NCBI GenBank assembly: GCA_039679675.1
Contig: JBDKUN010000033.1
Span: forward strand, 1 to 64,000
Length of the DNA stretch: 64,000 nucleotides
Direction of reading: 5' to 3'
Source: Armatimonadota bacterium
GTDB taxonomy: Bacteria > Armatimonadota > UBA5829 > DTLH01
In this document: in pieces, positions 4,247 through 44,827 of the stretch
Numbering within the stretch: position 1 is the first letter of the stretch
Layout: each line of letters opens with the position of its first letter
The notes under the pieces: model-generated
Databases searched by the model: none
What the model saw: the letters and a program-made list of their open reading frames with translations, nothing else
What the model was told of the DNA's origin: nothing
Program-made: the position numbers and the translations under genes

Positions 4247-4312
4247 GATTATATATACGGGCTATTCTAGTAAGAGTTCAGAGTTGATGAGTAAGCATCA
4301 TGCGGAATGTCC

Positions 4313-14738: not shown

Positions 14739-14795
14739 ATGTAGTGGCGGTCTCCGTGCAGGCCATCTACCCCGTGGACCCACCGGACCACGGGG
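14739..14795 (+). repeat. REP-like hairpin repeat family A (TGTAGTGGCCGG..), degenerate copy A1, in convergent spacer
   Basis: gtagtggcggtctccgtgcaggccatc ~ copies at 30356 and 36475; followed by second hairpin CCCCGTGG..CCACGGGG. Confidence 0.6.
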
Positions 14796-19823: not shown

Positions 19824-19959
19824 GACCTATAGAATTTCGGCTGATTAATTAACGGCCAATCATATATTGTCTGTTGCCGAAACTCTTTAGGTTGATAAAG
19901 GATGAAAAGGAACCCCGCGTTTCATCACTTCAACCCGGAATAAGATATTTCCATATATA

Positions 19960-22041: not shown

Positions 22042-22087
22042 TTAGTTTATCTGAAGTGTGCTCCGGGATTATCTCAGTCCCGGAGCA
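22038..22087 (+). repeat. Repeat family E copy E3 (aattagt..TGCTCCGGGA-loop-TCCCGGAGCA), overlaps flotillin stop; may double as terminator
   Basis: Same stem design as 41648-41677 and 36868-36897; 9-bp GC-rich stem. Confidence 0.6.
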
Positions 22088-22125
22088 TTGTTATCTCAGG
22101 TGCTGAGTCCAGAGTTGCTTAGTTC

Positions 22126-22175
22126 AATGTCATGTTGAACTACCACAACGTCATTCAGAGCTTGACTCGGAAGCT
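22126..22175 (+). repeat. Repeat family D copy D4 (5' half only: atgtcatgttgaactaccacaacgtcattcagagcttgactcgg)
   Basis: 37/37-like match to 41684-41722; truncated at ECF sigma stop codon. Confidence 0.6.
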
Positions 22176-28355: not shown

Positions 28356-28388
28356 GGAAGGCTGATAGCTGAAAACTGAAAGCTGAAA

Positions 28389-29807
28389 ATGAGATTTAGA
28401 CCTGAAGTAAAAGTAGGATTGATTGTCTTTCTGTGTCTCGTTGCCCTGGTGATAATCTATTGGTTCTTCGGAGGACTGGGGCTTCGCGCGGGCAACTATC
28501 AGATATGCGCGGTATTTGACGATGTCATGCGGCTGTCCCGCGGAACTGATGTCAGAATGGCCGGTGTCAGGATAGGCATGGTACAGGACATTACCCTTAC
28601 TGCAGACAAACGAGCGCAGGTTATAATGCTGATAAACAAAAAGTATGAGGGCGCTGTCCCGGAAGACTCCAATGCTCGTGTGACTACCGGAGGAGTGATA
28701 GGTGTCGGCGAGTATTACGTCGAAATCCTGCCGGGTTCAAGCAAAAAAGCCATCGCGAACAATGAATGCCTTCGAACAGTAAGGATGCCGACACTGGATG
28801 ATGTGCTTCCTGACGTGAAAGTGCTGGTCAGCGGTCTGAAGAGGACTATTAACTCGGTCAACGATGTCATAGACAACCCGAAAGTGCGCGCATCTCTTAA
28901 GAATATAGTGGCTAACACGGATGCCACTACTAAAAATATGGCGGAGCTTACGGGTGATATGCGGACGCTTATCGCTCAAAATAGCGCAGAAATAGGGCAG
29001 ATTATTGCCAATGTAGACAGTGCATCGAGAGATTTTGCCGGTCTTAGCCAGGAAGTCGGCCGGATGGTGTCATCAGGAAGGCCGGATATCGATCGAACGC
29101 TCGCGAATGTCAGGTCTGCTTCCGATGACTTTGCATCGTTCAGCAAAAGCCTGCGAAAGACTCTTGAAGGCGGCGGTGCAGAAGACATAAGCGAGCTTGT
29201 TTCAAGCGCAAAGTCGACTGTGGAGAATCTTGAGGCAGTAAGCAAGCAATTGCGGGCGCTCGCGGAAGATGAGACCATTTCGACCGAGATACGGGAGACT
29301 ATCAAAAACGCTTCTGTGGCAGCAAAAGGCGCGGCTGATATTGTTGACCGTGTTGGAAAGATCGTCGGTGTAGGAAAGCAGTCAGCGCGTCCATCCAGGA
29401 CTGCGGAACCGGTGTCTGAGATTGGTTCACAGCTTGATGCGCTTGTTCAGCCCGAAGATAACAGCCTGCGTCTGGATTACAACTACAGGCTTGCAGGCCA
29501 CGGGAACCGGTTCTATCGCCTTGGACTTCTTGATTTTGGTCATAAGCCGAAGCTGAATGCACAGGTCGGCGGAGTCATCGACAATCTGAGCGCTTACAGA
29601 TACGGTATTTATGCTTCCAGAATCGGTATTGGCTATGACCGGATACTCGGCGATAATCTAAGGCTGAGCCTGGATTTATACCATCCGGATGATCCAAGAC
29701 TCGAAACAAAGATGAGGTATGATTTTGCCCCGGATATGGGGATTTGGGCGGGGGCCGACGATATCTTCGACGGCGAATGGATGGTTGGACTTCAGTATCG
29801 AAGATAA
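28389..29807 (+). CDS. mlaD: MCE/MlaD family protein with long C-terminal extension
   Basis: N-terminal TM + MCE domain (VFDDVMRLSRGTDVRMAGVRIGMVQDI), 472 aa. Confidence 0.7.
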   Translation: MRFRPEVKVGLIVFLCLVALVIIYWFFGGLGLRAGNYQICAVFDDVMRLSRGTDVRMAGVRIGMVQDITLTADKRAQVIMLINKKYEGAVPEDSNARVTTGGVIGVGEYYVEILPGSSKKAIANNECLRTVRMPTLDDVLPDVKVLVSGLKRTINSVNDVIDNPKVRASLKNIVANTDATTKNMAELTGDMRTLIAQNSAEIGQIIANVDSASRDFAGLSQEVGRMVSSGRPDIDRTLANVRSASDDFASFSKSLRKTLEGGGAEDISELVSSAKSTVENLEAVSKQLRALAEDETISTEIRETIKNASVAAKGAADIVDRVGKIVGVGKQSARPSRTAEPVSEIGSQLDALVQPEDNSLRLDYNYRLAGHGNRFYRLGLLDFGHKPKLNAQVGGVIDNLSAYRYGIYASRIGIGYDRILGDNLRLSLDLYHPDDPRLETKMRYDFAPDMGIWAGADDIFDGEWMVGLQYRR

Positions 29808-29855
29808 CATATAAGTCCGGCTTGGAACCGGCATTATTTTAATTCAGGAGAAGCT

Positions 29856-30302
29856 ATGAAAGTCATATTGAAACAGGACATTAAAGCTGTAGGCAAGATG
29901 GATGACGTGGTGAATGTTACTCCCGGATATGCCAGGAATTATCTTTTTCCGAGGAGCCTGGCGGTAGAAGCGACCGATCAGAACCTCACAGCGTTGAAGC
30001 GAAAACACGATGCAATCGAGAAAAAAGGCGAGAAGCTGGTGGCGGAGTGCCGCGAGATCGCAGATAATCTTACGGGAAAGAAGATCACTATCACAGCAAA
30101 AGCAGGTGCGGGATCGAAACTCTATGGCTCAATCACTTCTCAGGATATAGCGGATGCCGTGAAGTCCCAGACCGGCATGGAACTGGACAAGCGGAAGATT
30201 AACGTTGCCGATCCGATAAAAACAGCCGGAACCCACAGCATACCCGTCCGGCTTCATAAAGAAGTAGGGTTCGAACTCTCCGTGGAGGTAGTGACTGAAT
30301 AA
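29856..30302 (+). CDS. rplI: 50S ribosomal protein L9
   Basis: MKVILKQDIKAVGKMDDVVNVTPGYARNYLFP matches L9. Confidence 0.85.
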   Translation: MKVILKQDIKAVGKMDDVVNVTPGYARNYLFPRSLAVEATDQNLTALKRKHDAIEKKGEKLVAECREIADNLTGKKITITAKAGAGSKLYGSITSQDIADAVKSQTGMELDKRKINVADPIKTAGTHSIPVRLHKEVGFELSVEVVTE

Positions 30303-30355
30303 AAGGGAATAAGGGATAGTAAAAGCTGATCCCTGGTCGTGTGGTCACTTACGAG

Positions 30356-30399
30356 TGTAGTGGCCGGGCTCTGTCCCGGCCAGAGGCATCAAAGATGCC
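30356..30399 (+). repeat. REP-like hairpin repeat family A copy A2 (between rplI and dnaB)
   Basis: tgtagtggccgggctctgtcccggcca + second hairpin GGCATCaaaGATGCC. Confidence 0.65.
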
Positions 30400-30454
30400 T
30401 TGCTACACAAAATATCGTGCACCACACCCGCTAGACCTTCCCTTTGGCAAAACC

Positions 30455-31870
30455 ATGGAACGTTTGTCTGCATTAGAACGTGTGCCACCACAAAATATCG
30501 AGGCGGAGCAGTCGACTTTAGGGTCGATGATGCTCGACCGTGCGGCTATTGAGAAGGCTGCCGAGATCCTGAGGGATATCGACTTCTACAGGCCGAGCCA
30601 CGGCATCATATTCGATGCTATGTGCTCGCTCAGCGAGCGGGACGAGCCGGTAGACCTCATTACCCTGCAGGAAGAGCTGAGAAACAGGAACAAGCTGGAG
30701 GAGGTCGGCGGCACAGAATACCTGATGGCGCTTCTTTCGCAGGTGCCGTCCGCATCGCGGGTCGAGTACTATGCAAGGATAGTCGAACAGAAGTCGATAC
30801 TTCGAAGGCTTCTTGCCGCGTCGGCTGAAATAACAGGCATGGTGCATCAGGAAGCCGATGATGTCGACGCCATAACGGACAAAGCCGAACAACTTATCTT
30901 CCAGGTGGCACAGCGGCGGCTTGGACAGTATTTTTCGCCGATTGCGCCTGTCGTTATGGAGGCATGGGACAGGCTGAACGCGCAGTGGGAGCAGGGGAGC
31001 ATCATTTCCGGGCTTGAGACTGGGTTCAGGGACCTCGATCTTATGACTTCGGGGCTCCAGAACGGCGATATGATCATTGTAGCAGCCCGGCCTTCCATGG
31101 GAAAGACATCTTTCGCGCTCGATATAGCGAGCCACGTAGCTATACGTCAAAAACTGCCTGTTGCCCTCTTCAGTATAGAAATGTCGAAAGAGCAGCTAGC
31201 CTTGAGACTCCTTTCGTCACACGCTCAGGTCGAGTCCCAGCGGCTTCGCGCGGGGTTTGTGCATGACGATGAGATCAACAAGGTCTCAAGAGCCGCAAAC
31301 GAGCTTTTCCAGGCTCCGATATTCATAGACGACTCGACGGACATATCCCCGATGGGCATGAGAACGAAGTGCAGGAGACTGAAAGCCGAGCAAGGCGGCC
31401 TATCTCTTGTTGTGGTCGACTACCTGCAGCTTCTCAAATGGCACAGGCAAATAGATAACCGCGTGCAGGAGATTTCGGAGATTGCGCGGGCGCTCAAAAG
31501 CCTCGCAAGAGAGCTTAAAGTCCCGGTGATTGCGCTTTCTCAGTTGTCCAGACGCGTTGAGCAGAGGGATGACAAGCGGCCGATACTCTCGGACCTCAGA
31601 GAAAGCGGTTCCATCGAAGCTGAAGCCGACCTCGTTATGATGCTTTACAGGCCTAAATACTACGAGCGCAAGGAAATGGTCGATGCTGAGGAGACCGTTG
31701 GCCTGGATTCAGCCACAGGCAAGGTAAAGAAGCACGATCTCGGCGTGGAAGACACGGAAGAGGCTGAAGTCATCATCGGCAAACAGCGAAATGGCCCTAC
31801 AGGTACGATCAAGATGGGTTTTCTGAGCCACTACGCGCATTTTGTGGATATAGAGAAATTTCGAGATTAG
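30455..31870 (+). CDS. dnaB: Replicative DNA helicase DnaB
   Basis: N-term PPQNIEAEQSTLGSMML; Walker A GKTSFAL; start set at MERLSALE (ORF-track start 30341 lies in repeat A2). Confidence 0.85.
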   Translation: MERLSALERVPPQNIEAEQSTLGSMMLDRAAIEKAAEILRDIDFYRPSHGIIFDAMCSLSERDEPVDLITLQEELRNRNKLEEVGGTEYLMALLSQVPSASRVEYYARIVEQKSILRRLLAASAEITGMVHQEADDVDAITDKAEQLIFQVAQRRLGQYFSPIAPVVMEAWDRLNAQWEQGSIISGLETGFRDLDLMTSGLQNGDMIIVAARPSMGKTSFALDIASHVAIRQKLPVALFSIEMSKEQLALRLLSSHAQVESQRLRAGFVHDDEINKVSRAANELFQAPIFIDDSTDISPMGMRTKCRRLKAEQGGLSLVVVDYLQLLKWHRQIDNRVQEISEIARALKSLARELKVPVIALSQLSRRVEQRDDKRPILSDLRESGSIEAEADLVMMLYRPKYYERKEMVDAEETVGLDSATGKVKKHDLGVEDTEEAEVIIGKQRNGPTGTIKMGFLSHYAHFVDIEKFRD

Positions 31871-31882
31871 CAAGGAGTCTTT

Positions 31883-33172
31883 ATGCGTCAAAACAACCTG
31901 AACGTCCTGGTTATCGGAAGCGGCGGCAGAGAACATGCCCTGGTATGGAAAATAGCGAAAAGCCCGCGCGTCGACAAGGTCTTTTGCGCGCCTGGGAATG
32001 CCGGGACTGCTGCGATTGGTGAGAATCTTCCAATAAAACCTACAGAATTCGACCGGCTGATAGAGGTCTCAAAGGAAAAGAAGATCGATCTTGTTGTAGT
32101 CGGCCCGGAGACTCCGCTTATTGCGGGAATAGTAGATGCGTTCAGTGCTACAGGCATACCCGTGTTTGGCCCGACCAGGCTTGGCGCGCAGCTTGAAGGC
32201 AGCAAAGTCTTTACAAAAGAGCTTCTCCTTGAGAACAACATCCCTACAGGTGGTTTTGCTGCGTTCGACGATCCTGAAAAGGCAATTGCAGATGTTAAAA
32301 AGCATTTCGCAGGTGAGAGTAAGCCGATAGTCATAAAGGCAGACGGTGAAGCCGCTGGAAAAGGCGTGATCATCGCAAATACCGAGGCTGAGGCTCTTGA
32401 TGCGGTCGATATGATTATGGTCAAGAAGGCATTCGGGGCGTCAGGCAATAAGATCATCATCGAAGAGTTTCTGGAAGGCCAGGAAGCGTCCATTATGGCT
32501 TTTGTAAGCGGCGGCGCAGTTCAGGGTATGCTTCCGGCGCAGGACTACAAGCGGGCGCAGGATAGCGACAAAGGGCCGAACACCGGCGGAATGGGGTGTT
32601 ATTCGTGCGTTCCAGCCGTTACTCCTGAGATTTATGATACTGTGATCGAGAAGATAATCCGCCCGACGATCAAAGGGCTTGCCGCGAAGGGGATCGATTA
32701 CTGCGGGGTGCTCTACGCCGGTGTAATATTGACCGCTGATGGCCCCAAACTTCTTGAGTACAACTGCCGGTTAGGTGATCCCGAAACAGAGGTCGTGCTG
32801 CCGCTTCTTGAGACTGATCTGGTGGACATTATCGAGGCGGCAATCGAGCACCGACTCGACGGAATCGAGATAAAATGGTACAATAAAAAGGCAGTATGCG
32901 TGGTTCTGGCCTCAAAAGGTTACCCGGGAAGTTACGATACAGGATTTCCGATCAGCGGCATTGCAAATGCCGAGTCTATCGGGGCGATTGTTTTCCATGC
33001 CGGAACAAAACTTGTCGATGGCCGGGTGGTGACATCCGGCGGTCGGGTGCTCGGCGTCACGGCAACAGGCGGGACGTTTCGGGATGCGGTCGCTGCTGCG
33101 TACGAGGCAGTCGAAAAGATCAGCTTCGAAGGAATGACATATCGCAAGGATATTGGAGCGAGGGTTCTCTAG
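31883..33172 (+). CDS. purD: Phosphoribosylamine--glycine ligase
   Basis: MRQNNLNVLVIGSGGREHALVWKIAKSP.. canonical PurD. Confidence 0.9.
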   Translation: MRQNNLNVLVIGSGGREHALVWKIAKSPRVDKVFCAPGNAGTAAIGENLPIKPTEFDRLIEVSKEKKIDLVVVGPETPLIAGIVDAFSATGIPVFGPTRLGAQLEGSKVFTKELLLENNIPTGGFAAFDDPEKAIADVKKHFAGESKPIVIKADGEAAGKGVIIANTEAEALDAVDMIMVKKAFGASGNKIIIEEFLEGQEASIMAFVSGGAVQGMLPAQDYKRAQDSDKGPNTGGMGCYSCVPAVTPEIYDTVIEKIIRPTIKGLAAKGIDYCGVLYAGVILTADGPKLLEYNCRLGDPETEVVLPLLETDLVDIIEAAIEHRLDGIEIKWYNKKAVCVVLASKGYPGSYDTGFPISGIANAESIGAIVFHAGTKLVDGRVVTSGGRVLGVTATGGTFRDAVAAAYEAVEKISFEGMTYRKDIGARVL

Positions 33173-33631
33173 GTGCATAAGGTAGCAGTATTAATGGGCA
33201 GTAAATCGGACATGCAGGTTATGCAGCCTGCAGCGGACGTGCTCATTCAGAAGTTTGGTATTGAGAGCGAAATACATGTAATCTCCGCGCACAGGACACC
33301 TCACAAAGTTGCTGAATTTGCTTCAAATGCTGCCGCTAACGGATTTGATGTGATAATCGCCGGAGCAGGGATGGCAGCTCACCTCGCAGGTGTGCTCGCC
33401 GCGTTTACCCCGCTTCCGGTCATTGGTGTTCCGATCAAAAGTGCATCTTTCGAAGGAATGGACGCACTTTTGTCGATGGTCCAGATGCCGTCCGGCGTGC
33501 CGGTCGCAACGGTTGCTGTAAACGGTGCAAAAAACGCAGGAATTCTGGCTGCGCAGATCATTGGAGTCGGCGACCCAGAGGTTAGGAAGAAAATCGAGGA
33601 TTACAAGCGAACGTTGGCGGAAGCTAAGTAG
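33173..33631 (+). CDS. purE: N5-carboxyaminoimidazole ribonucleotide mutase (GTG start)
   Basis: KVAVLMGSKSDMQVM..AHRTPHK..IIAGAGMAAHLAG canonical PurE. Confidence 0.85.
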   Translation: MHKVAVLMGSKSDMQVMQPAADVLIQKFGIESEIHVISAHRTPHKVAEFASNAAANGFDVIIAGAGMAAHLAGVLAAFTPLPVIGVPIKSASFEGMDALLSMVQMPSGVPVATVAVNGAKNAGILAAQIIGVGDPEVRKKIEDYKRTLAEAK

Positions 33632-33638
33632 GTGATCC

Positions 33639-35159
33639 ATGCCCGGTCGGTCTCGTTGGCTAGATTATCTTTTTATATTGGTTGTGGCTGGGGCATTGAT
33701 CTATCAGCTATTTGTGCCTCCTATCATTGGCTTGGCCAATAGCGGCGATTTTGAGAGGCTGATGAGGACCATCGGGCTGAGCTACCAGACAGATAATTGC
33801 TACGACAAGTATAATCTATTCGTAAACCGGGAGTTCATGTGGGACAGCAAATTTGATCCAAGCTATCCGACGTCAGAGCTACTCTTCCTAGGTGGAGGAT
33901 CACTGCTCAACGGTGCGGTGTCCAGTGACGATACATTTGACATTCGTGGACTTGGCTTGGTTCATGCTATCACGTTCCTGCTGGTTACAGCGCTACTGGT
34001 TCTGTATGCGAGATCGCTGACTGCTTGGCGGAGGCTGTTGCTGTACGCGCTTGTGGCATTCATTTTTACTGATATTGGGTACGTTGCGTATTTTAACTCG
34101 CTCTATTCGGAGCCGTCGTCGCTTATATTTTTCTGTGCTGCCGTTGTATTCGCGCTGGCTGGAATAGCGAAAGGGCAGTCGAACGACCGTGGCTGGCTTT
34201 TCATAATAGGCTACTTTGCGGCCTCTGCACTGTTCGTGACGGCGAAGTTCCAGAATGCGTTTCTTGGGTTTCCGATGGCGTTCTTTGGCTGGCGGCTCTA
34301 CGGGATGGTTACTCCAGCAAGCAAAAGGCTTATGCCGCGGTTTCGATGGCTTGGTGTCGGGCTTGTAATTCTGCTCACGCTTGCTTCGGCCGGGTTCTAT
34401 GGGCTTTACACAGAGCTTTCTGCTCACGCCAGGCCCGCAAATCTATATGATACCGTGTTTGAGGAGATTCTGGGACACTCGAAGACTCCTGAAGCAGACG
34501 CGGCAGCTTTGGGATTGCCCGTGTCGCTTGCCAAGTATGCTGGTACATCAGCTTACTCGACGGATGTCCCTGCGGAAGTGAAATCGGAGATTGTTTCCAG
34601 AGTGGGTTACACTAACGTAATAAAGTTTTATTTAACCCATCCTGGGCGGCTGTGGAACTTGGCTGGGCGCAGCGCAGCGAGTTCACTTTCCATGCGCCCG
34701 AGCTATTTGGGGAATTTGGAACCATCGGCTGTTGACCAAGATAAGCTGGCAGGTCAGCAGATAAATCCGTCGGCCCTGCCGGATGATTTTCGAAGCCGCA
34801 AGTTCTCCGCATGGAGTACGATTAAGAAAAACTGTGTTCCGAAGACGCTGTGGTTCCTTGGCTTGTTCCTTGGCGTGAATGTTGCGACTGTTGTTCTAAA
34901 ATGGAGATATTTCGATAAGATGGTAAAGGATTATAAGATCAGTGAGTTGCACGCTGTGCTGATTCTGATGGCGGTGTTGCAGTTCTTCATCGTTATAATC
35001 GGTGAAGGTGAGCACGAAATAGTGAAGCATCTTTTCCTCTTTAACCTGTTGAGCGAGATATGCTTTATCTTTCTCATAATGTATATGGTGAGCGGCGTCG
35101 CCTATCTGTGGCAGCGAAAGACGATGCGCCCACGGCAATTGGTGATTCAGAATGATTGA
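33639..35159 (+). CDS. Uncharacterised polytopic membrane protein (506 aa) embedded in pur operon
   Basis: Many hydrophobic helices; 8-nt gap after purE and 8-nt overlap with purB indicate co-transcription/translational coupling. Confidence 0.5.
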   Translation: MPGRSRWLDYLFILVVAGALIYQLFVPPIIGLANSGDFERLMRTIGLSYQTDNCYDKYNLFVNREFMWDSKFDPSYPTSELLFLGGGSLLNGAVSSDDTFDIRGLGLVHAITFLLVTALLVLYARSLTAWRRLLLYALVAFIFTDIGYVAYFNSLYSEPSSLIFFCAAVVFALAGIAKGQSNDRGWLFIIGYFAASALFVTAKFQNAFLGFPMAFFGWRLYGMVTPASKRLMPRFRWLGVGLVILLTLASAGFYGLYTELSAHARPANLYDTVFEEILGHSKTPEADAAALGLPVSLAKYAGTSAYSTDVPAEVKSEIVSRVGYTNVIKFYLTHPGRLWNLAGRSAASSLSMRPSYLGNLEPSAVDQDKLAGQQINPSALPDDFRSRKFSAWSTIKKNCVPKTLWFLGLFLGVNVATVVLKWRYFDKMVKDYKISELHAVLILMAVLQFFIVIIGEGEHEIVKHLFLFNLLSEICFIFLIMYMVSGVAYLWQRKTMRPRQLVIQND

Positions 35160-36444
35160 TAGATATTCTCTCCCGAAAATGAGAGCCGTCTGGAGCGAGG
35201 AGAACAAGTTCCGGACATGGCTCGATGTCGAAATAGCCGTATGTGAGGCACAAGAGCACTTCGGCAATATCCCCAAAGGGACTTCCGAGAAGGTGAAAGC
35301 CGGTGCGAAGTTCTCCGTAGAACGGATCGAGAAAATTGAGCAGGAAACGCATCATGACCTGATAGCGTTCGTCAAAGCCGTCACGGAAAACCTCGGAGAC
35401 GAAGGAAAATATGTCCACTATGGAGTGACAAGTTACGATATAGAGGACACGGCGATGGCTATAAGGATACGGCAGTCAGCCGACCTGATTTTGGAAGACC
35501 TCGAAGCCCTTAAGACAGTCATCGGCAAGCTCGCGAGAGAGCATAAGTCGACAGTGATGATCGGAAGGACGCATGGAGTCCACGCCGAGCCGATCACTTT
35601 CGGTTTTAAGATGGCTGTATGGTATTCCCAGATAATGCGCGACATCGAGCGGGTCAAAGCAGCGAGAGAAGCGATCAGCTACGGCAAAATTTCCGGCGCA
35701 GTAGGGATATTCGGGAATATCGACCCCAAGATCGAAGCATTTGTATGTGAGAGGTTGGGGCTCAAGGTAGCGCCCGTATCTACGCAGATCATCCAGCGCG
35801 ACAGGCATGCGCAGTTTATGACAGCACTTGGGATAGCTGCATCATCCGCAGAGAACTTCGCAACCGAGATGAGGAACCTCCAGCGGACTGAGATACTCGA
35901 AGTCCAGGAAATGTTCCTTCCGGGACAGCGTGGATCGTCCGCAATGCCGCACAAGAGGAACCCATGGCGGTTCGAGACGATTGTCGGGCTTGCTAGAGTA
36001 GTCCGCACGAACGTCATCCCAGCTATGGAGAACGTAACCTCCTGGCATGAGCGCGATAACACCAACTCAGCCTGCGAGCGGATTATTATCCCTGATAGCT
36101 GCCAGGCAACAGATTTTCTCCTTCAGTCCCTCACCAAGCTGATGACCCGGCTTGAGATCAACACTGAAAATATGCAGAAGAACCTCACGAAGATGGGCCA
36201 GCTTGTTTTCTCCGAGCACGTGCTCCTTGCTCTTGTAAAGAAGGGCATGACGAGGGAAGAAGGCTACAAGGTCTGCCAGAGAAACGCCGCAAAGTGCTGG
36301 GACGAAGGAGTATCTTTCAGGCAGGCGCTTGAGAAGGACGAAGACGTAAAGCGGCTGCTTTCAGACGAAGAACTCGCAAAGTGCTTCGACCTGGAGCACC
36401 ACCTGCGAAACGTCGAGACGATTTTGGAGAGATTAGGGATTTAG
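35152..36444 (+). CDS. purB: Adenylosuccinate lyase
   Basis: MIDRYSLPKMRAVWSEENKFRTWLDVE.. and SSAMPHKRNP signature. Confidence 0.9.
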   Translation: MIDRYSLPKMRAVWSEENKFRTWLDVEIAVCEAQEHFGNIPKGTSEKVKAGAKFSVERIEKIEQETHHDLIAFVKAVTENLGDEGKYVHYGVTSYDIEDTAMAIRIRQSADLILEDLEALKTVIGKLAREHKSTVMIGRTHGVHAEPITFGFKMAVWYSQIMRDIERVKAAREAISYGKISGAVGIFGNIDPKIEAFVCERLGLKVAPVSTQIIQRDRHAQFMTALGIAASSAENFATEMRNLQRTEILEVQEMFLPGQRGSSAMPHKRNPWRFETIVGLARVVRTNVIPAMENVTSWHERDNTNSACERIIIPDSCQATDFLLQSLTKLMTRLEINTENMQKNLTKMGQLVFSEHVLLALVKKGMTREEGYKVCQRNAAKCWDEGVSFRQALEKDEDVKRLLSDEELAKCFDLEHHLRNVETILERLGI

Positions 36445-36474
36445 CTTTTAATCACGAAAGCACGAAATAAGAAA

Positions 36475-36520
36475 TGTAGTGGCCGGTCTCCGTGCCGGCC
36501 ATCGACCTCGTAGAGGTCGG
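36475..36520 (+). repeat. REP-like hairpin repeat family A copy A3
   Basis: tgtagtggccggtctccgtgccggccatc + hairpin GACCTCgtagGAGGTC. Confidence 0.65.
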
Positions 36521-36529
36521 ACATGAAAA

Positions 36530-36660
36530 TAGCTATCAGCAATCAGCCGTCAGCTATCAGTAAATATGTCACTCTGAGTAACCAATACGACACCCTGAAC
36601 TTGATTCAGGGTCCATTCTTTTCCTGGATTCCGAGTCAAGCTCGGAATGACGTGGTGAAT
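36530..36660 (-). repeat. MITE-like repeat family D copy D3 (full length, inverted orientation)
   Basis: Reverse complement aligns to 41690-41845 across core (..gagcttgactcggaatccaggaaaagaatggaccctgaatcaagttcagggtg..) and 3' tail (tcagagtgacat..tgacggctga..agctgatagctat). Confidence 0.7.
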
Positions 36661-36854
36661 TAGTGGAGACTTGTGCTGTTTGCTTTTTAGTAATGGTGCT
36701 TCAAATTGATATGTTTTGTTGCATCGGACTGCTTGCTGCCGATGCGGGCCGGTAGGCCCGAAAAACAATGAGACGGCATATGTTGTTTCTCGACACCTGC
36801 GGTGTCGGCTTCGGTAGCAAGCGAACCGAAGCAAATTAAACGCGAAATAGGAAT

Positions 36855-36900
36855 TAGTGGAGACTCATGCTTCGGGACGAAAAGCGGTTCCGAAGCATAA
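36855..36900 (+). repeat. Repeat family E copy E2 (aattagtggagactca-TGCTTCGGGACGAaaagcGGTTCCGAAGCA)
   Basis: Near-identical to 41636-41680; a truncated 5' copy aattagtggagacttgtgct at 36658-36683. Confidence 0.65.
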
Positions 36901-36933
36901 TGATAGTGCAAGAAAAACAAAGCGAGGAGCCGA

Positions 36934-37176
36934 ATGGCAAAGGTAAAAGTCTACGTAACGTTAAAGCCGACCCTTCTGGATGCACAGGGCCGCGTGGTTA
37001 TGACCGCGCTTGAGAACCTGGGGCATACAAACATCGAAAACGTGAGGATTGGCAAGTATATCGAGGTCGAGGTTGCCGATAACGGCCGGAATATCAACGA
37101 GCAGATGGATGAAATCTGCCGTAATCTGCTCTCCAACCCGGTTATCGAGAACTACCGCTATGAGGTGACGGAGTGA
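36934..37176 (+). CDS. purS: FGAM synthase subunit PurS
   Basis: 80-aa [19 protein letters not shown].. canonical PurS. Confidence 0.85.
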
Positions 37177-37862
37177 AATTCGGTGTAGTAGTCTTCCCAG
37201 GCTCGAACTGCGACCAGGATGCATACTACGCCGTCCGCGACGTCCTGAAGCAGCCTGTGGAGTATATATGGCATCAGGATAAAGACCTGAAAGGCTCCGA
37301 TTGTATCATCCTGCCGGGCGGGTTCTCTTATGGTGACTACCTTAGAACAGGCGCTGTAGCCCGGTTTTCCCCGGTCATGGAAGCTGTGCAGGAGCATGCG
37401 GCAAAGGGCGGCTATATCATCGGGATATGTAACGGCTTCCAGATCCTCTGCGAGGCACATCTTCTTCCGGGCGCGCTTGTATCGAACACTGGACTCAAGT
37501 TCATATGCAAGTATGTTAATCTTCAACCCGAAAACTTGAACACTCCGTGGACGAATAAATGCAATGAAGGCCAGGCGCTCCGTATCCCAATCGCCCACCA
37601 GGGCGGCAACTACACCTGCGACCCAGAGACTCTTCAGCGAATAGAAGACAATGGGCAGGTTATCCTCCGCTATTGCGATGAGCGAGGAGTCGTATCACCT
37701 GAAGTGAACCCGAACGGTTCGTTGAACAATATCGCAGGGATAACCAACGAACAGGGTAACGTCGCTGGGATGATGCCGCATCCTGAGAGAGCGGTCGAGA
37801 AGATTCTCGGTAGCGACGACGGTTTAGCAATTTTAAGATCTGTTATTGAGTGGGCTGGATAA
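37173..37862 (+). CDS. purQ: FGAM synthase glutaminase subunit PurQ
   Basis: [16 protein letters not shown].. catalytic Cys in GICNGFQ; triad His/Glu MPHPER. Confidence 0.9.
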
Positions 37863-40159
37863 TGATAAAAGAACCAGGAAGCAAAGTAGTCGATAAGAAC
37901 ACACTACCCATACCTGCGGAAGTCTACCGCGAGATGGGGTTATCTGATGAGGAATACAAAAAGGTCGTAGGTGTCCTCGGCAGGCATCCTACATACACCG
38001 AGGTCGGGATGTATGCCGTTATGTGGAGCGAACACTGCGGCTATAAGTACTCTCGGCCGGTGCTCCGGCTGTTCAAGAAGTACAAAGAGGCGCTGGACGG
38101 CGAAGGGCTCGAAAATGCCGGTGTAATCGACATCGGCGACGGGCTCGGCATTGTCATGAAGATGGAAACTCACAACCATCCATCCGCTGTGGAGCCGTTC
38201 CAGGGCGCAGCGACCGGGGTAGGGGGCATTTTAAGAGACATCTTCACGATGGGCGCCCGTCCAATCGCATGCCTCAATTCTCTCAGGTTCGGCTCGCTCG
38301 ATGATCCTCATAACAAATACCTTTTTGAGAATGTCGTGGCAGGCATCGCTCATTACGGCAACTGCGTAGGCGTTCCGACTATTGGCGGTGAGGTTGTTTT
38401 TGATGAGTGTTACTCCGGCAACTGCCTCGTAAACGCGATGTCCGCCGGAATCATCAAAACGGATGAAATCGCCTCGGCCTGCGCGAAGGGAGTCGGAAAC
38501 GCTGTTCTGTATGTTGGTTCCAGGACAGGATGCGACGGTATCCACGGCGCGACATTTGCCTCAGTCGAACTTGGGCCTGATTCGGAGTCAAGAAGACCGA
38601 ATGTACAGATCGGCGACCCGTTCCAGGAGAAATTGCTTATCGAAGCGACTCTTGAAGCCCTGAAGACCGGCTGCATAGTCGGAATCCAGGATATGGGAGC
38701 TGCCGGTATCACCTGCGGATCGTGCGAGACAGCTGCAAAGGGCCGGTCAGGGATGGAAATAGACGTCCTCAAGGTCCCGCGCCGTCAGGAAGGGATGACA
38801 CCTTACGAAGTCATGCTTTCAGAGTCGCAGGAGAGGATGCTCGCGATAGTCGAAAAAGGCAAAGAGGACGAAGTCGCGTCTGTATTCAAGAAATGGGGGC
38901 TGAGCGCGGTAGTCATAGGTCATGTCATAGACAGCGATTTAGTGCGAGTCTTCGAAGGCGATCAGTTAGTGGCCGAAATCCCCGCAAAATCCCTTGCGGA
39001 TGATGCGCCGACTTATTATCTTGAAACAGAAGAGCCTGATTATCTGGCTGAAGTCCGAGAGTTTGATCTGTCGAAGATACCTGAGCCTAAAGACTATAAC
39101 GAAGCGCTCGAAAAACTGCTCGCATCGCCTTCTATTTCAAGTAAAGAGTGGGTCTACAGGCAGTATGACCACATGGTCCAGACAAATACGGCCGTTATGC
39201 CGGGATCGGATGCCGCCGCGCTCCGAATAAGAGGCACGAAGAAGGCTATCGCGCTTGTCGCGGACTGTAATGGCCGGTATTGCTACCTCGATCCGTTCGT
39301 GGGTGCTCAGATAGCCGTCGCAGAAGCCGCAAGGAACCTTGCTTGTACCGGTGCGAAGGCTTTGGGTGTTACGGACTGTGTGAGCTTCGGCAATCCTGAA
39401 AAGCCGCAGGTGTTCTGGCAGTTCAAGAGAGCAATTGAGGGTATGGCCGAGGCCTGCGAAGCATTTGGAACCCCTGTCGTGAGCGGAAACGTGAGTTTCT
39501 ACAACGAGACGCCGGTAAGTGCGATCTACCCGACACCTGTAGTCGGTATGCTTGGGCTGATCGAAGACGCTGAAAAGCACTGCACAAGTGAATTCAAGCA
39601 TGAAGGTGATGTCATAGCACTCCTTTCGGGGAAGAGAGCTGCATCGGATAATGATTCCGATGCGGCAGTATGCGCTGCGAACGATCTCGGCGGAACTGAG
39701 TATCTTAAAGTAATGCACAACGTTGTAGCAGGAACTCCCCCGGCCATCAATATGGACGCAGAGAAACGGCTTCATGCTGCTCTCATAGAGGTAATACAGG
39801 AAGGCTATGTTTCTTCGGCGCATGACTGCTCGGACGGCGGGCTTGCTTTAGCTGTCGCAGAATCGGCAATTGCAGGTAATCTAGGTGCAGAGATCAGCGT
39901 GACCTCTGATTGCGGAGCGGCTGTCGCACTCTTTGGAGAAGCTCAGTCGCGGGTCGTCGTTTCCCTCTCGCCGGATATGCTTGGTGAGATGCGGGAGATA
40001 GTCGACAAGCATAACGTAGAGTGCACGATACTTGGAAAAGTCCACGGAAACAGGCTGAAGGTCGCCGTGAATGGTGTGAATGTGATCGACAGGCCTGTCG
40101 AGCGAGTTGCAAAAATCTGGAAGAACGCAATTCCTGATAGAATGGAAGGCCGGGATTGA
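37862..40159 (+). CDS. purL: FGAM synthase large subunit PurL (start ATG overlaps purQ TAA; alt 37850)
   Basis: Canonical PurL (ETHNHPSAVEPFQGAATGVGG.., two AIR-synthase-like modules). Confidence 0.9.
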   Translation: MIKEPGSKVVDKNTLPIPAEVYREMGLSDEEYKKVVGVLGRHPTYTEVGMYAVMWSEHCGYKYSRPVLRLFKKYKEALDGEGLENAGVIDIGDGLGIVMKMETHNHPSAVEPFQGAATGVGGILRDIFTMGARPIACLNSLRFGSLDDPHNKYLFENVVAGIAHYGNCVGVPTIGGEVVFDECYSGNCLVNAMSAGIIKTDEIASACAKGVGNAVLYVGSRTGCDGIHGATFASVELGPDSESRRPNVQIGDPFQEKLLIEATLEALKTGCIVGIQDMGAAGITCGSCETAAKGRSGMEIDVLKVPRRQEGMTPYEVMLSESQERMLAIVEKGKEDEVASVFKKWGLSAVVIGHVIDSDLVRVFEGDQLVAEIPAKSLADDAPTYYLETEEPDYLAEVREFDLSKIPEPKDYNEALEKLLASPSISSKEWVYRQYDHMVQTNTAVMPGSDAAALRIRGTKKAIALVADCNGRYCYLDPFVGAQIAVAEAARNLACTGAKALGVTDCVSFGNPEKPQVFWQFKRAIEGMAEACEAFGTPVVSGNVSFYNETPVSAIYPTPVVGMLGLIEDAEKHCTSEFKHEGDVIALLSGKRAASDNDSDAAVCAANDLGGTEYLKVMHNVVAGTPPAINMDAEKRLHAALIEVIQEGYVSSAHDCSDGGLALAVAESAIAGNLGAEISVTSDCGAAVALFGEAQSRVVVSLSPDMLGEMREIVDKHNVECTILGKVHGNRLKVAVNGVNVIDRPVERVAKIWKNAIPDRMEGRD

Positions 40160-41607
40160 ACTTAGCAGTACCAGAGATCAAAGAAGAGTGCGGCGTAACC
40201 GGGATATTCGCGCCTGGTGAGGAGGCTGGTAGGTTAGCTTTCTTCAGCCTCTTTGCACTCCAGCATAGAGGCCAAGAGAGCGCCGGTATAGCTGTTGCTG
40301 ACGGCAGCAAAATCACCGTCCATAAGGATATGGGGCTTGTCACTCAGGTCTTTACTGAGGATGTGCTCTCAAAACTCGGCGGCGGGATTGCCATAGGCCA
40401 CACCAGGTATTCAACAACGGGATCGAGTATTTTGCGAAATGTGCAGCCCATTGAATGTACCCGGAAGAACAATGAGTGCTTCGCGCTCGCTCACAACGGA
40501 GATCTCGTCAATGCCGCGGAAGTGCGCGCAGAGATGGAAGCAGAAGGTGTCGAGTTTGAAACGACGAATGACACTGAAGTAATAGCAAAAATTATCGCTA
40601 ACAGCTCCGCGGAGACTATCGAAGAAGCTATAACTGAGGCGATGCAGCGGATCAAAGGCGCGTATGCGGTCGTAATCCTGACAAAAGACAAGTTGATCGC
40701 GATTAGAGATGCCTTTGGAATACGCCCGCTTTGTATAGGCAAGATCAACGGCGAGCACTACATTGTCGCTTCGGAAACATGTGCCTTAAACGTCATCGGC
40801 GCGAGCTTTACACGCGCCGTCGAACCCGGCGAGATGATCGTGATTGACGAGAGCGGCGTAAAAGAGATTCAGGCGATACCGATGGAAAGGCATGCGCTCT
40901 GTATATTTGAGTTCATCTACTTCGCCAGACCGGACAGTATGATGTACGGAAGGACGCTTCACGAGGCGAGGAGGAGGATGGGACATGAGCTCGCGAGAGA
41001 GCATCCCGTCCCGAATGCACACATCGTTTTCCCGATACCGGACACCGGCACACCGGCGGCCATCGGGTTTGCGGAAGCATCCAGGATCCCGTATGCAGAG
41101 GGAGTCATCAAAAACCGCTATATCCACCGGACTTTCATCCAGCCGAACCAGAGGATGCGTGACCTTGGTGTCAGGATGAAGCTGACGCCATTAAAAGAAA
41201 GCCTTGCAGGGCGAAGAGTCGTTATGGTAGAGGACAGTATCGTGCGTGGCACAACGACCGGGCAGACGGTAAAGATGATCCGGGATGCGGGAGCAGTTGA
41301 GGTCCATGTAAGGATTGCAGCGCCGCCCTATAAGTGGCCTTGTTTCTACGGTATCGACACGGCTTCCCAGAATGAACTTATCGCTGCGAAGCTGTCGGTA
41401 GAAGAGATCAGGGACTACATAGGCGCAGACAGTTTGGGCTATTTGAGCATACAGGGGCTGACGAGGGCTATCGGTGTCAAAAAAGAGAATTTTTGCCGGG
41501 CGTGCCTGGATGGAAAATACCCGATTCCGATCCCAGATGCCGCAAAGCTCCAAAAGTTTATCTTCGAGGACAAAAAGTCGGGCGATAAAGCTAAGAAAGA
41601 TATCTAG
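40156..41607 (+). CDS. purF: Amidophosphoribosyltransferase (with short propeptide before catalytic Cys)
   Basis: EECGVTGIF N-terminal nucleophile; PRTase motif VVMVEDSIVRGTT. Confidence 0.9.
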   Translation: MNLAVPEIKEECGVTGIFAPGEEAGRLAFFSLFALQHRGQESAGIAVADGSKITVHKDMGLVTQVFTEDVLSKLGGGIAIGHTRYSTTGSSILRNVQPIECTRKNNECFALAHNGDLVNAAEVRAEMEAEGVEFETTNDTEVIAKIIANSSAETIEEAITEAMQRIKGAYAVVILTKDKLIAIRDAFGIRPLCIGKINGEHYIVASETCALNVIGASFTRAVEPGEMIVIDESGVKEIQAIPMERHALCIFEFIYFARPDSMMYGRTLHEARRRMGHELAREHPVPNAHIVFPIPDTGTPAAIGFAEASRIPYAEGVIKNRYIHRTFIQPNQRMRDLGVRMKLTPLKESLAGRRVVMVEDSIVRGTTTGQTVKMIRDAGAVEVHVRIAAPPYKWPCFYGIDTASQNELIAAKLSVEEIRDYIGADSLGYLSIQGLTRAIGVKKENFCRACLDGKYPIPIPDAAKLQKFIFEDKKSGDKAKKDI

Positions 41608-41635
41608 TTGTTTTTTTATCATGTTAACTAAGCAC

Positions 41636-41680
41636 TAGTGGATGTCGTGCTTCGGGACGAACTGCGGTCCCGAAGCATAG
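41636..41680 (+). repeat. Repeat family E copy E1 (ctagtggatgtcg-TGCTTCGGGACGAactgcGGTCCCGAAGCA)
   Basis: 10-bp perfect stem; forms composite with D2 immediately downstream. Confidence 0.65.
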
Positions 41681-41683
41681 GGT

Positions 41684-41845
41684 ATGTCATGTTGGACTAC
41701 CACAACGTCATGCTGAGCTTGACTCAGCATCCAGGAAAAGAATGGACCCTGAATCAAGTTCAGGGTGACGTCGTTGTTGTTCAGAGTTACATTTTTCTCT
41801 ACTGACGGCTGAAAGCTAATAGCTGACAGCTATAAACCCTCGACT
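41684..41845 (+). repeat. MITE-like repeat family D copy D2 (full length ~160 bp) in purF|purM spacer
   Basis: atgtcatgttggactaccacaacgtcatgctgagcttgactcagcatccaggaaaagaatggaccctgaatcaagttcagggtgacgtcg...tcagagttacat..tgacggctga..; TIR-like ATGTCA / TTACAT-TGACGT ends. Confidence 0.7.
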
Positions 41846-41857
41846 GAGGAGGTCATA

Positions 41858-42889
41858 TTGAACGAAGAGATTACCTACCGCAATGCGGGTGTAGATATAG
41901 ATGCCGGTATAGAGACCGTGCAGAGGATGAAAGAGAGCGTCAGAGCGACATACACAGACTCTGTACTAACGGATGTCGGTTCGTTCGGCGGGATGTTCAA
42001 GCTCGGCGATGACATGATGGAGCCTGTGCTGGTCTCCAGCATCGACGGTGTTGGCACAAAGGTCAAAATTGCAGTTGCGATGGGCAAGCACAATACCATC
42101 GGCAAAGACCTCGTAAACCACAGCGTGAATGATATTCTCGTCCAGGGCGCAAAACCGCTTTTCTTCCTCGATTATTATGCGACAAGCCCTCTCGACCCTA
42201 TAGTAGCCTCTGATGTCGTCAGAGGCGCAGCTGAAGCCTGCAAAGAGATCGGTTGCGTGCTGATCGGCGGCGAGACGGCTGAGATGCCGGGTGTCTACAT
42301 TGAAGGTGAGTATGACCTTGCCGGATGCATAGTCGGAGCTGTAGATAGAGCGAAGATAATCGATGGTTCTAAGGTCATGGCCGGGGATATGATCGTCGGG
42401 CTTGCATCGAGCGGACTGCATACGAACGGCTATTCACTTGCCCGAAAGGTTTTGCTTGATCACGGCGGGCTAAAGCTCGATCAGTACATCCCAGAAATAG
42501 GGAAAATCCTGGGTGATGAACTCCTGGAGACTCACAGGTGCTATTTTAAAGCCGTCTGGGAGGTCATGAAGGAATATGATGTGCATGCGATGGCGCACAT
42601 AACGGGCGGCGGGTTCTATGACAATCTGCCGAGAGTAATTCCTGAAGACTGCCAGATTACGCTGGAGCGCCGCAGTTGGCCCGCACCGCCTATCTTTAAG
42701 CTAATACAAGATACTGGCGGAATCGCGGATTACGAGATGTACCGCACGTTCAATATGGGAATCGGTCTGGTCATGATCGTAGCGAAACACAGAGCCGTAG
42801 AAATCGTAGACCAGCTTGAGAAGCTCGGCGAGCGTGCATGGATAATCGGCGAAGTCCGAAAAGGCGGGAGAGAGGTAGCTGTCCTGTGA
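41858..42889 (+). CDS. purM: Phosphoribosylformylglycinamidine cyclo-ligase
   Basis: YRNAGVDIDAG.., DLAGCIVGAV, canonical AIR synthase. Confidence 0.9.
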   Translation: MNEEITYRNAGVDIDAGIETVQRMKESVRATYTDSVLTDVGSFGGMFKLGDDMMEPVLVSSIDGVGTKVKIAVAMGKHNTIGKDLVNHSVNDILVQGAKPLFFLDYYATSPLDPIVASDVVRGAAEACKEIGCVLIGGETAEMPGVYIEGEYDLAGCIVGAVDRAKIIDGSKVMAGDMIVGLASSGLHTNGYSLARKVLLDHGGLKLDQYIPEIGKILGDELLETHRCYFKAVWEVMKEYDVHAMAHITGGGFYDNLPRVIPEDCQITLERRSWPAPPIFKLIQDTGGIADYEMYRTFNMGIGLVMIVAKHRAVEIVDQLEKLGERAWIIGEVRKGGREVAVL

Positions 42890-43524
42890 ATCAGGTAAGG
42901 ATAGCGGTGCTGGTGTCCGGTCATGGGCGCGGAACGAACATGCAGGCGATTATAGATGCCTGCAAAGACGGCAAAATAACCGGTGAGGTGGTTGTCGTCA
43001 TAGGTGTTCGCCCGGACGCTCCCGCAATGGAGCGCGCTGACGCATCATGCGTCGAAACAGCGGTCGTGAACCCTAAAGAATATAACTCGGCGGGGGATTA
43101 TGACCTTGCGCTTCTCGATGTGCTTCAGTCGCGACGCATCGATCTCATTTGTCTTGCTGGCTATATGAGAAAAGTCGGCCAGCCGGTAATAGATGCTTAC
43201 CGAGACCGGATTATGAATATCCACCCTGCGCTTATCCCGATGTTTTTCGGCAAAGGGATGTATGGAAGCCATGTTCATGAGGCAGCGATAGAGCGGGGAG
43301 TGAAATACTCCGGTTGTACTGTGCATTTTGTAGACGAAGATTACGATACGGGGCCGATAATTGCCCAGACTGTCGTGCCGGTTATGGAAGACGATACGCC
43401 TGAATCTCTTGCGGCGCGGATATTGATTGAGGAACACAAGACCTATGCTGCAGCCATACAGCTTTTTGCCGAAGGCAGGTTGAAAGTGGTTGGACGAAGG
43501 GTTTTGGTAGAGAAAAGAAACTAA
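42886..43524 (+). CDS. purN: Phosphoribosylglycinamide formyltransferase (GTG start overlapping purM stop, GTGA)
   Basis: RIAVLVSGHGRGTNMQAII.., NIHPALIP, canonical PurN. Confidence 0.85.
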   Translation: MNQVRIAVLVSGHGRGTNMQAIIDACKDGKITGEVVVVIGVRPDAPAMERADASCVETAVVNPKEYNSAGDYDLALLDVLQSRRIDLICLAGYMRKVGQPVIDAYRDRIMNIHPALIPMFFGKGMYGSHVHEAAIERGVKYSGCTVHFVDEDYDTGPIIAQTVVPVMEDDTPESLAARILIEEHKTYAAAIQLFAEGRLKVVGRRVLVEKRN

Positions 43525-44258: not shown

Positions 44259-44827
44259 TAATTTTGCATTGAGTTTCAGGTGTCATCGGAGGCTCTTCTG
44301 GAAGAATATTTGCTAATAACATGTATGCGATTAATTGTTATATGGATGATAATATTAGTTCAAACTAAGCAATAAAACAGGTATAATTACTGGGGAAAGG
44401 TGACGTGCGTTCGGATTGACATTGACACTGAACGGCGTGCCGTGATACCATCGAAACGATGAGTTTAGGTGTATAAAGTGCATTCCAGCACAGGATATTA
44501 CGCAGGCTATCATAGACATCTCCGTTCTGCTATTCCAGAAGATTTCCATAGAAGTGAGTTCGTTTGGGAACCGGCAGCATATTGCTGAGCGTAATATTAA
44601 ATGGCGGGCAGACTGTTCAGTATTTATTCGCCAAATGAATAAAGTAGCCTAAAGACGCAGGACGTATAGTCAATAATTGATATGTATGGCTGGTGATTTT
44701 AGTGAGTTCGGCAGTACACTGCGAGATTTTCGGCAACAGACAATATATGACTGGCCGTTAATTAATCAGCCGAAAATCTATAGGTAGGGGGAATGAAGCT
44801 GTATGGTAAACAGAGGTAGGGGGAAAG

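Follow-up and report, generated by a model that had tools for sequence, protein, structure and literature searches.

A probable eroded IS66/ISBst12-type miniature element with a nested hairpin repeat between purF and purM of an Armatimonadota bacterium

In contig JBDKUN010000033.1 (assembly GCA_039679675.1) of an Armatimonadota bacterium, of which positions 1 to 64,000 were analysed (hereafter, the window), the genes purF and purM of the pur operon are separated by a spacer of 250 bp, about 240 bases of which are extra and include a block at approximately 41618-41833. The upstream gene, purF (40156-41607, forward strand, stop codon TAG at 41605-41607), codes for an amidophosphoribosyltransferase recognised by the Pfam domains GATase_6/GATase_7 and by synteny with the loci L109-L112 of relatives, and its product is 8 amino acids longer at the C-terminus than that of L109, the closest relative; the product of purM carries an AIRS domain, its closest named PurM relatives are Armatimonadota, and its ribosome-binding site GAGGAGG (41846-41852) and TTG start codon at 41858 (41846-41860 in all, forward strand) are conserved with L109 and undamaged by the insertion. 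A previous reading of the same letters, referred to below as the original prediction, had described the block as a composite resembling a MITE (a transposable element of the miniature inverted-repeat type) and made of two modules, a hairpin (E) and a longer block with terminal inverted repeats (D). The evidence presented here makes it quite probable that the block is a lineage-specific selfish repeat insertion, namely an eroded MITE of the IS66/ISBst12 type with a nested E, and not a site that functions in the pur operon.

Read from left to right, the insert begins with ATCATGTTAACTAAGCA (41618-41634, +), a possible remnant of the MITE left arm, for which there is a weak alignment to the first unit of a complete copy and to the left terminal inverted repeat (TIR), in its inner half. 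It is followed by the E unit (41635-41679, +), composed of the head CTAGTGGATGTCG (with TAGTGG at 41636-41641), of a stem in which TGCTTCGGGA(C) at 41648-41658 pairs with (G)TCCCGAAGCA at 41667-41677, and of the tail TA. The D core (41684-41792, +) runs from ATGTCATG (41684) to GTTACAT (41792), after which ACTGACGGCTGA is found, and comprises subterminal units, hairpin 1 (41707-41731, +; GTC + ATGCTGAG/CTTGA/CTCAGCAT + C), the centre CCAGGAAAAGAATGG, hairpin 2, which is the hairpin-1 unit inverted (41745-41769, -; GTC + ACCCTGAA/CTTGA/TTCAGGGT + C), and the right subterminal repeat GTTGTTCAGAGTTACAT. On the right side of the copy lies a heptanucleotide tract of the form (GCTGAnn)n, ACTGACG GCTGAAA GCTAATA GCTGACA GCTAT (41801-41833, +), the GCTGA-rich run reaching 41833. 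The sequences on which the original prediction was built (TAGTGG, the E stem, the start and the end of D) are all present where it had placed them, the stem, given there as 10 bp, being 11 bp long.

In four of five relatives the purF-purM spacer does not exceed 42 bp: it measures 33 bp in L109 (PurM identity 88%), 24 bp in L110/L111 (83%) and 42 bp in L144 (82%), and in L112 (80%) the two genes overlap (-4 bp). L109 is collinear with the window over 29694-43498 at ~80% nucleotide identity, and its gaps with respect to the window are the repeat-bearing spacers 30301-30455, 36444-36913 and 41577-41848 and one extra open reading frame (ORF), with no others; the purB-purS spacer is likewise empty in relatives. 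The emptiness of the orthologous spacers therefore indicates that the block was inserted in this lineage, and excludes a regulatory element kept by conservation.

The D module is not confined to this spacer. In the window, the core GCTTGACTCNGNANCNAGGAA occurs four times (4328, 22160 and 41717 on the forward strand, 36621 on the reverse strand) against ~0.15 occurrences expected, none of 100 shuffles reaching four; the contexts of the four copies are unrelated and both orientations are represented. The recurrence of D noticed in the original prediction is hereby confirmed, as is that of E (at 36852-36899 and 22056-22087). Beyond the window, the copy count that had been proposed as a check was obtained by a scan of one genome per species, whose counts are lower bounds among the matches listed: D is present in at least 23 eight-kb blocks on 21 contigs of the metagenome-assembled genome (MAG) Armatimonadota bacterium 6_bin.213, with unrelated flanks, and the further matches listed, outside this MAG, are chance matches. 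When the window is compared with the DNA of the MAG, the repeats alone match, with 73-96% identity, and the D core at 41684-41792 is 84-96% identical to the MAG copies.

Twelve copies of the element are complete, including the one at 4270-4454 of the window; they are 162-311 bp long, contain no ORF and are bounded by TIRs of 22 nt. Their 5' part consists of the left TIR GTAAGAGTTCAGAGTTGATGAG, one to three units ACATCATGCTGAAC/CACAACGTCATGCTGAGC, hairpin 1 and CCAGGAAAAGAATGG, and their 3' part of hairpin 2 (with or without an internal insert of ~70 nt), one to five units GTTCAGGGTGAYGT and the right TIR, ...AGAGTGAACTCTTAC. The motifs ACGTCA/TGACGT and ATGTCA/TTACAT, which had been taken for the TIRs, are in fact internal subterminal units, present one to five times per arm, and the true 22-nt TIRs are absent from the copy at 41.6 kb. 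Target-site duplications (TSDs) of 8 bp, identical at 8/8 positions, flank the copies at L027 (AAAAGTAG), L057 (TAAGATTA), L080 (CTACTGCT, read from the flanking sequence of aligned copies) and L083 (AGCGAATG); that of L060 (TCAAATTG) is 8/8 only if the element boundary is moved by 1 nt, near-perfect duplications are found at L084 (7/8) and L010 (TATTCTA), and a short metagenomic relative, L116, displays the TSD TATCCATA. The chance of an 8-bp match is 1.5e-5 per site, and these duplications settle the matter in favour of transposition through a cut staggered by 8 bp. The search for TSDs, which had also been suggested as a check, hence gave a divided answer: they exist, 8 bp long, in complete copies, and none was found at the 41.6-kb copy.

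The ends of the complete copies point to a likely mobiliser. The inverted repeats of IS66 insertion sequences (ISs) begin with GTAAGCG and are accompanied by 8-bp direct repeats (PMC11946415); ISDge4, of the ISBst12 group, has the TIR GTAACTGCTCAGCA, a single transposase of 449 amino acids and an 8-bp direct repeat (PMC12898284). When metagenome contigs were scanned with the TIR plus a next base chosen to exclude the MITE interior, 22 loci were obtained, where chance alone would give one or two; besides other MITE families with these ends, they include complete elements, 1426-1573 bp long, bounded by the inverted TIR and carrying a single ORF of 446-490 amino acids each, which matches PF03050 (DDE_Tnp_IS66, E = 1.7e-44 and 2.3e-36), the match to zf-IS66 being slightly under the cutoff. 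The IS end of L119, one of these loci, equals the left end of the MITE at 22/22 positions. Autonomous elements with the same TIRs, whose existence the original prediction had left to be checked, are thus at hand in the IS66 family. The transposase P0198 is listed on 196 contigs with 49% GC, equal to the GC content of the window; its IS is 1479 bp long, has the ends GTAACAGTTCAG/GTAAGAGTTCAG (also written GTAACAGTTCAGTCT/GTAAGAGTTCAGTCT) and an 8-bp duplication, TTGCTTGC, pieced together from two assemblies (L137 and L138). Among 120 homologues, the named ones, P0198 included, are solely 'IS66 family transposase' from Armatimonadota / Armatimonadia. Moreover, the MITE-bearing MAG itself contains what is left of a truncated IS66 element (L041:208-597), with 77% identity to the last 121 amino acids of P0198; its tip equals the right end of the MITE at 17/17 positions, at a locus that was obtained independently of the TIR search.

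The partner ISs are assigned to the ISBst12 group because their single DDE_Tnp_IS66 ORF, the TIR GTAAC.G.TCAG and the 8-bp direct repeat match those of members such as ISDge4; the starts of the inverted repeats, GTAAG(CG)/GTAAC, are those of IS66/ISBst12. The MITE shares with this group the ends GTAA(G/C) and the 8-bp target duplication, and differs from it in that its interior has nothing in common with the IS interior and is made of GTC-headed hairpin units, and in that the purF/purM copy has neither end left. The statement that no transposase is present in the window holds for the IS66 family, no member of which was detected by tblastn, and it was for this family that the window was covered. 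A literature search found no earlier MITE derived from IS66/ISBst12 and no Armatimonadetes MITE, which is no proof that none exists; the element is an IS66/ISBst12-type MITE from an uncultured phylum, and as such selfish DNA of an ordinary kind. It may be added that the metagenome contigs L114, L117, L118, L124 and L127 carry other MITE families of ~160-240 bp, with unrelated interiors and the ends GTAA(G/C)AGTTCACACTTGATGAGG; one transposase lineage seems, from these ends, to serve several MITE families.

Set beside the complete copies, the one at 41684-41792 is without the first ~26 nt (the left TIR) and the last ~27-45 nt (the right TIR). Once E is removed, the purF/purM copy is collinear in local alignment with L031 over ~160 nt, both tips missing, and L031 is a complete copy in which this heptamer tract also occurs, placed after the right-hand units and before the right TIR. 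With both TIRs lost and no TSD, the purF/purM copy is no longer mobile and, judged by its sequence, is a dead, truncated and immobile fossil. In an independent assembly of this sequence, a Logan contig starts at window position 41746, within D, a break which is expected because multicopy repeats break short-read assemblies.

As for E, this hairpin of ~45 nt is a repeat that recurs on its own, with 8 further sites across the window and the MAG loci, and it frequently stands directly 5' of a CGTCAT unit; in the MAG locus L027 it unambiguously interrupts a D copy at its centre, without TSD. At 41.6 kb, E is read as an insertion into D because the 13-17 nt on its 5' side align, weakly, with the inner left arm (41618-41634 against the left arm of L031: ~10/14 matches, in a local alignment with E removed, score 188), and E is thus probably nested within the left arm of this D and not a neighbour of it. 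What had been called a composite does bring E and D together, and is better called nesting, for which the alignment is weak at 41.6 kb and the case clear in L027. The original prediction had also reported the same two-module arrangement at 22.0 kb: the association indeed recurs there, and the junctions differ (E, 6 nt and a TIR-less D at 41.6 kb; E, 17 nt and a degenerate left TIR at 22.0 kb), so that a recurrent association, and not one duplicated composite, is indicated.

The following course of events can be proposed. A DDE transposase of the ISBst12 type would act in trans on the 22-nt ends, by a cut or a copy route, and the MITE would insert with duplication of 8 bp of target, as its signatures suggest. 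The purF/purM copy, of the heptamer-tract (GCTGAnn)n subtype, would have arrived complete and been eroded later, an E hairpin would have nested in its left arm, and what is left would now be inert and presumably neutral DNA. As the insert follows the stop codon of purF and precedes the ribosome-binding site of purM, which is intact, it must be co-transcribed with the operon, and the transcribed insert would fold into very stable hairpins. Correia elements and other bacterial MITEs are small, TIR-bounded and non-coding, occur in many copies, are co-transcribed, form long hairpins and break short-read assemblies; the family described here differs from Correia elements in its TIR sequence, in its TSD (8 bp for D, TA for Correia) and in the presumed transposase family. 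Repetitive extragenic palindromic (REP) elements can stabilise upstream mRNA, and by analogy with REP and Correia elements the hairpins of the insert could block exonucleases or serve as sites of processing.

Taken as a family, the D elements are short and non-coding, have TIRs and a TSD of fixed length, are dispersed in many copies over unrelated contexts, leave empty orthologous sites in relatives and share their ends with a transposase-encoding IS; the copy at 41684-41792 by itself displays neither TIRs nor TSD. The view that these are non-autonomous mobile elements and not regulatory sites is borne out by the multiple copies, by the TIRs and TSDs, by the ends shared with IS66 and by the empty spacer of four relatives. 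The results support the MITE reading as right for the family, and as wrong about the identity of the terminal repeats, about the copy that is complete and about the copy at 41.6 kb still being an element.

Several observations weigh against an origin by transposition of an IS66/ISBst12-type MITE. The identity of the TIRs follows by construction, the ISs having been found by a TIR search; independent of that design are the presence of an IS66-family transposase beside the TIR and, one IS length away, of a second TIR in inverted orientation. Those complete ISs whose TIRs are identical belong to other, mostly high-GC, organisms, and no intact partner IS was seen in what was covered of the window's own genome. 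Five of the 12 complete copies have no clear TSD, the one at 4270-4454, where none was recognisable, being among them. Several TIR-less copies start exactly at the unit boundary CACAACGTCAT, unlike what random erosion would produce, and for the 41.6-kb copy, which has neither TIRs nor TSD, arrival by transposition is deduced from family membership alone. Finally, the 'empty' spacer of L109 contains GAAAGCTGACAGCT, which corresponds to two units of the heptamer tract, so that the block may be ancestral in part, or else this sequence may be the scar of an older insertion that L109 has lost.

Among the other explanations, the one that survives best starts from the two hairpins of the core. Perfect GTCA-headed hairpins of 8 bp number three in the window, against 0.03 expected; six stem variants exist among the copies, each paired at 8/8 positions, and the arrangement GTC-palindrome-C is invariant. 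In an alignment of ten cores, a model of two local hairpins gives 98.8% paired positions, three pairs of hairpin 1 change on both sides and none of 500 shuffles matches the score; as the ten cores are related and hold only about three independent variants, this covariation provides modest evidence of a constraint on the hairpins. The long-range stem of the minimum free energy (MFE) fold was discarded in favour of the two local hairpins, natural variants breaking it in 5 of the 10 sequences and leaving the local hairpin 100% paired. In Neisseria, the NTS repeat, CGTCATTCCCGCGMAVGCGGGAATCYRG, is bound as single-stranded DNA and cut just upstream by SsnA, a GIY-YIG nuclease of 94 amino acids, for which the critical positions are the three nucleotides that precede the palindrome and the C that directly follows it (PMC11893778). 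These positions are invariant in all D variants, whose stems covary and stay fully paired; in the ATTCCGAG variant, hairpin 1 reads CGTCATTCCGAGCTTGACTCGGAATCCAG (CGTCATTCCGAG-CTTGA-CTCGGAATCCAG), shares CGTCATTCC...GGAATCCAG with NTS and agrees with the NTS consensus in its outer 9+9 nt.

The TIR-less D core could accordingly be seen as an inverted pair of NTS-like hairpins, as in Neisseria NIME/dRS3, which would be spread or kept by an Ssn mechanism (GIY-YIG enzyme and single-stranded DNA) or by recombination; the IS66 ends would then be secondary and the purF/purM copy would never have had TIRs. With the Neisseria NTS/dRS3 repeats, the Ssn-related motifs (SRMs) and the NIME mosaics, D has in common the oriented CGTCAT head, a hairpin of ~20 nt, the ATCC(A)G tail, the inverted pairing and the mosaic intergenic clusters, and the start of TIR-less copies at CACAACGTCAT, the frequent position of E 5' of a CGTCAT unit, the solitary hairpins in two other phyla and the hairpin pair of L143 (both described below) are all in line with such an origin. 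It nonetheless seems unlikely to us. The inner stem and loop differ (GAG-CTTGA-CTC in D, CGCG-MAV-GCG in NTS); no D hairpin matches the published SRM pattern HGTCWYN(0-2)YYVSBRHN(0-5)WNVSBRGN(0-2)RNCYNB, which has one unrelated match in 229 kb; no GIY-YIG ORF was found by phmmer in the window or in the 144 collected loci, with approximate queries of limited sensitivity and over a small part of any genome. The D hairpin pair is packaged between transposon ends, complete copies bearing the TIRs and 8-bp TSDs of DDE-type transposition, and the 41.6-kb copy is collinear, heptamer tract included, with the TIR-bearing L031. The likeness to NTS is therefore presented as a resemblance and not as membership of the SRMs, and no literature on GTCAT-type repeats was found beyond PMC11893778.

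The cargo of the MITE might itself be an inverted pair of Ssn-type recognition hairpins, so that IS66/ISBst12 MITEs would carry targets of single-strand-specific GIY-YIG nucleases into the genomes of Armatimonadota and of others; this idea, drawn from the hairpin sequences, is a speculative one, which we hold to be doubtful. If true, it would supply a concrete and testable mechanism for the multiplication and spread of Ssn-type hairpins, left open by the Ssn paper (PMC11893778), and would tie together two mobile or defence-like systems.

Solitary hairpins of the D type were observed in two other phyla, in L072 (MAG bacterium BP7.bin63) and L078 (a Deferribacterales MAG): GTCATCCCGG-GCTTGAC-TCGGGATCCAGGAA and GTCATTGCGG-GCTTGAC-TCGCAATCCAGGAA have the loop and flanks of D hairpin 1 with compensating stems, and the hairpin of L078 lies ~10 nt upstream of a thymidylate-kinase-like start codon. 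In the relative L143 (PurM identity 85%), a different palindromic element of ~115 bp (3775-3895) occupies the purF/purM spacer and consists of two inverted GTCAT-headed hairpins (GTCATCCTGAACGCAGTGAAGGATC ... GAGATTCTTCGCTACGCTCAGAATGAC) with GTAAGATATAGGAT-type ends, the purF stop codon being located inside it; a BLAST search against all collected loci found no other copy. This element points to a recurrent occupation of the purF/purM site, and together with the hairpins of L072 and L078 it fits a wider class of GTCAT-hairpin elements.

It is very improbable that the modules are REP elements or bacterial interspersed mosaic elements (BIMEs), mobilised by a REP-associated tyrosine transposase (RAYT) and not by a DDE transposase. 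As in the REP/BIME of enterobacteria and pseudomonads, short intergenic palindromes are arranged here in mosaics (as at 36445-36925) and would be co-transcribed in operons; hairpins with a GTAG head, TGTAGTGGCCGG...CCGGCCA, are found at positions 14742, 30356 and 36475, and E has a TAGTGG head and inserts without TSD. D, however, has no GTAG head, and has the TIRs and 8-bp TSDs typical of DDE transposition; a RAYT reading may fit E and the GTAG hairpins, not D, and no RAYT gene was seen, though no search aimed at RAYT was made. The GTAG-headed hairpins (TGTAGTGGCCGGnCTCnGTnCCGGCCA; 14742-14770, 30356-30382 and 36475-36501, all +, and also in L016 and L027) have the REP-like form of GTAG followed by an imperfect palindrome, and constitute a separate family, the only REP-like one.

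The least tenable proposal, according to which the block would be an RNA regulating the pur operon in cis (as leader, attenuator, riboswitch or processing site) and its copies would regulate other genes, could appeal to the sense-strand location inside the operon, to the very stable predicted fold of the insert region (MFE -92.4 kcal/mol, z = -6.4 against shuffles) and to the covariation of hairpin 1, and is effectively refuted by the empty orthologous spacers of four relatives, in keeping with the TIRs and TSDs of complete copies, with the presence of copies in both orientations, after a tRNA, between convergent genes and within other repeats, with the lack of an Rfam family (the whole window at the gathering threshold and 41600-41870 at E ≤ 10 gave only tRNA-Gln and sub-threshold generic hairpins of plant miRNA precursors) and with a promoter and terminator scan of the spacer that predicted no promoter and no sense-strand terminator, the sole terminator-like site being antisense.

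With the IS66/ISBst12-type MITE thus preferred, the annotation of Armatimonadota gains a defined MITE family, with its ends, its TSD length and its likely transposase, which explains both the breaks in assemblies and the enlarged intergenic spacers of a pur operon that is otherwise conserved. The case also carries a caution, for subterminal repeats, when palindromic, may pass for TIRs, and the copy that looks best may be dead. Hairpins nested in the purF-purM and purB-purS mRNA may alter the stoichiometry of the operon, and the relatives without inserts allow a direct comparison.

As to the remaining copies, the only complete MITE of the window (4270-4454, +, 185 bp; left TIR 4270-4291, right TIR 4433-4454) lies 23 nt downstream of tRNA-Gln and ahead of a SIMPL/DUF541 gene; it had been listed in the original prediction as a mere core copy at 4313-4388. 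The copy at 22101-22183 (+), recognised by repeat comparison, is the 5' half of the MITE, with the degenerate left TIR GAGTCCAGAGTTGCTTAG and a truncation past the core, and is flanked by a Band_7 gene on one side and, on the other, by a sigma-70-like gene in convergent orientation; the latter (22174-23415, -) codes for sigma-70 r2/r4 domains and a T2SSF-like region, and its stop codon and last two or three codons fall within the truncated D remnant, so that the D insertion appears to have reshaped its 3' end. An E-like unit with the stem TGCTCCGGGA/TCCCGGAGCA precedes this copy (22040-22089, +; 22056-22087 in the repeat search). The inverted copy at 36566-36657 (-; 96 nt, 86%), previously described as full-length at 36530-36660, is a D core without TIRs, adjoined by a heptamer tract (36529-36561, -), in the repeat nest between purB and purS. 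An isolated E head (36658-36678) abuts this core, and a second good copy of E, TTAGTGGAGACTCA with the stem ATGCTTCGGGAC/GTTCCGAAGCAT, is found at 36852-36899 (+; 89% in the repeat search).

The purB-purS spacer as a whole measures ~480 bp (36445-36925), against 87 bp in L109, and contains at least six repeat modules: a GTAG hairpin, a CGACCTCGTAGAGGTCG hairpin, the heptamer tract, the inverted D, the E head, further GC hairpins and E. On its sense strand, hairpin 2 is followed by CCATTCTTTT, which is terminator-like because D is inverted there. An ORF of 506 amino acids without Pfam match (33639-35159, +), absent in L109, lies between purE and purB, and in L110 and L111 a HEAT-repeat gene of 501 amino acids is found in another spacer of this operon, purB/purS.

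The heptamer (GCTGAnn)n also occurs alone at 28362-28386, where a MlaD-domain gene has its ATG 3 nt downstream; the MAG has the tract exactly at the truncation point of the IS66 remnant (L041:596-632) and of several D copies, and it is present in L037 and L048 too. It may therefore mark deletion or recombination junctions, or be a separate module. The D-core pattern also matches a conserved …GCCGCTTGACTCCTCCTCAAGGAA… in seven Micrarchaeota MAGs (L005, L011, L020, L022, L030, L087 and L089), where the surroundings are alignable and look like one conserved gene unrelated to the D repeat. Lastly, a palindromic repeat of 62 nt, CCTATAGAWTTTCGGCTGATTAATTAACGGCCARTCATATATTGTCTGTTGCCGAAA, occurs at 19825-19886 (+) and 44724-44785 (-), in both cases in a divergent intergenic region and with 95% identity between the two, and it is also found in the Armatimonadota MAG (L031:105-164) at 95-97% identity.

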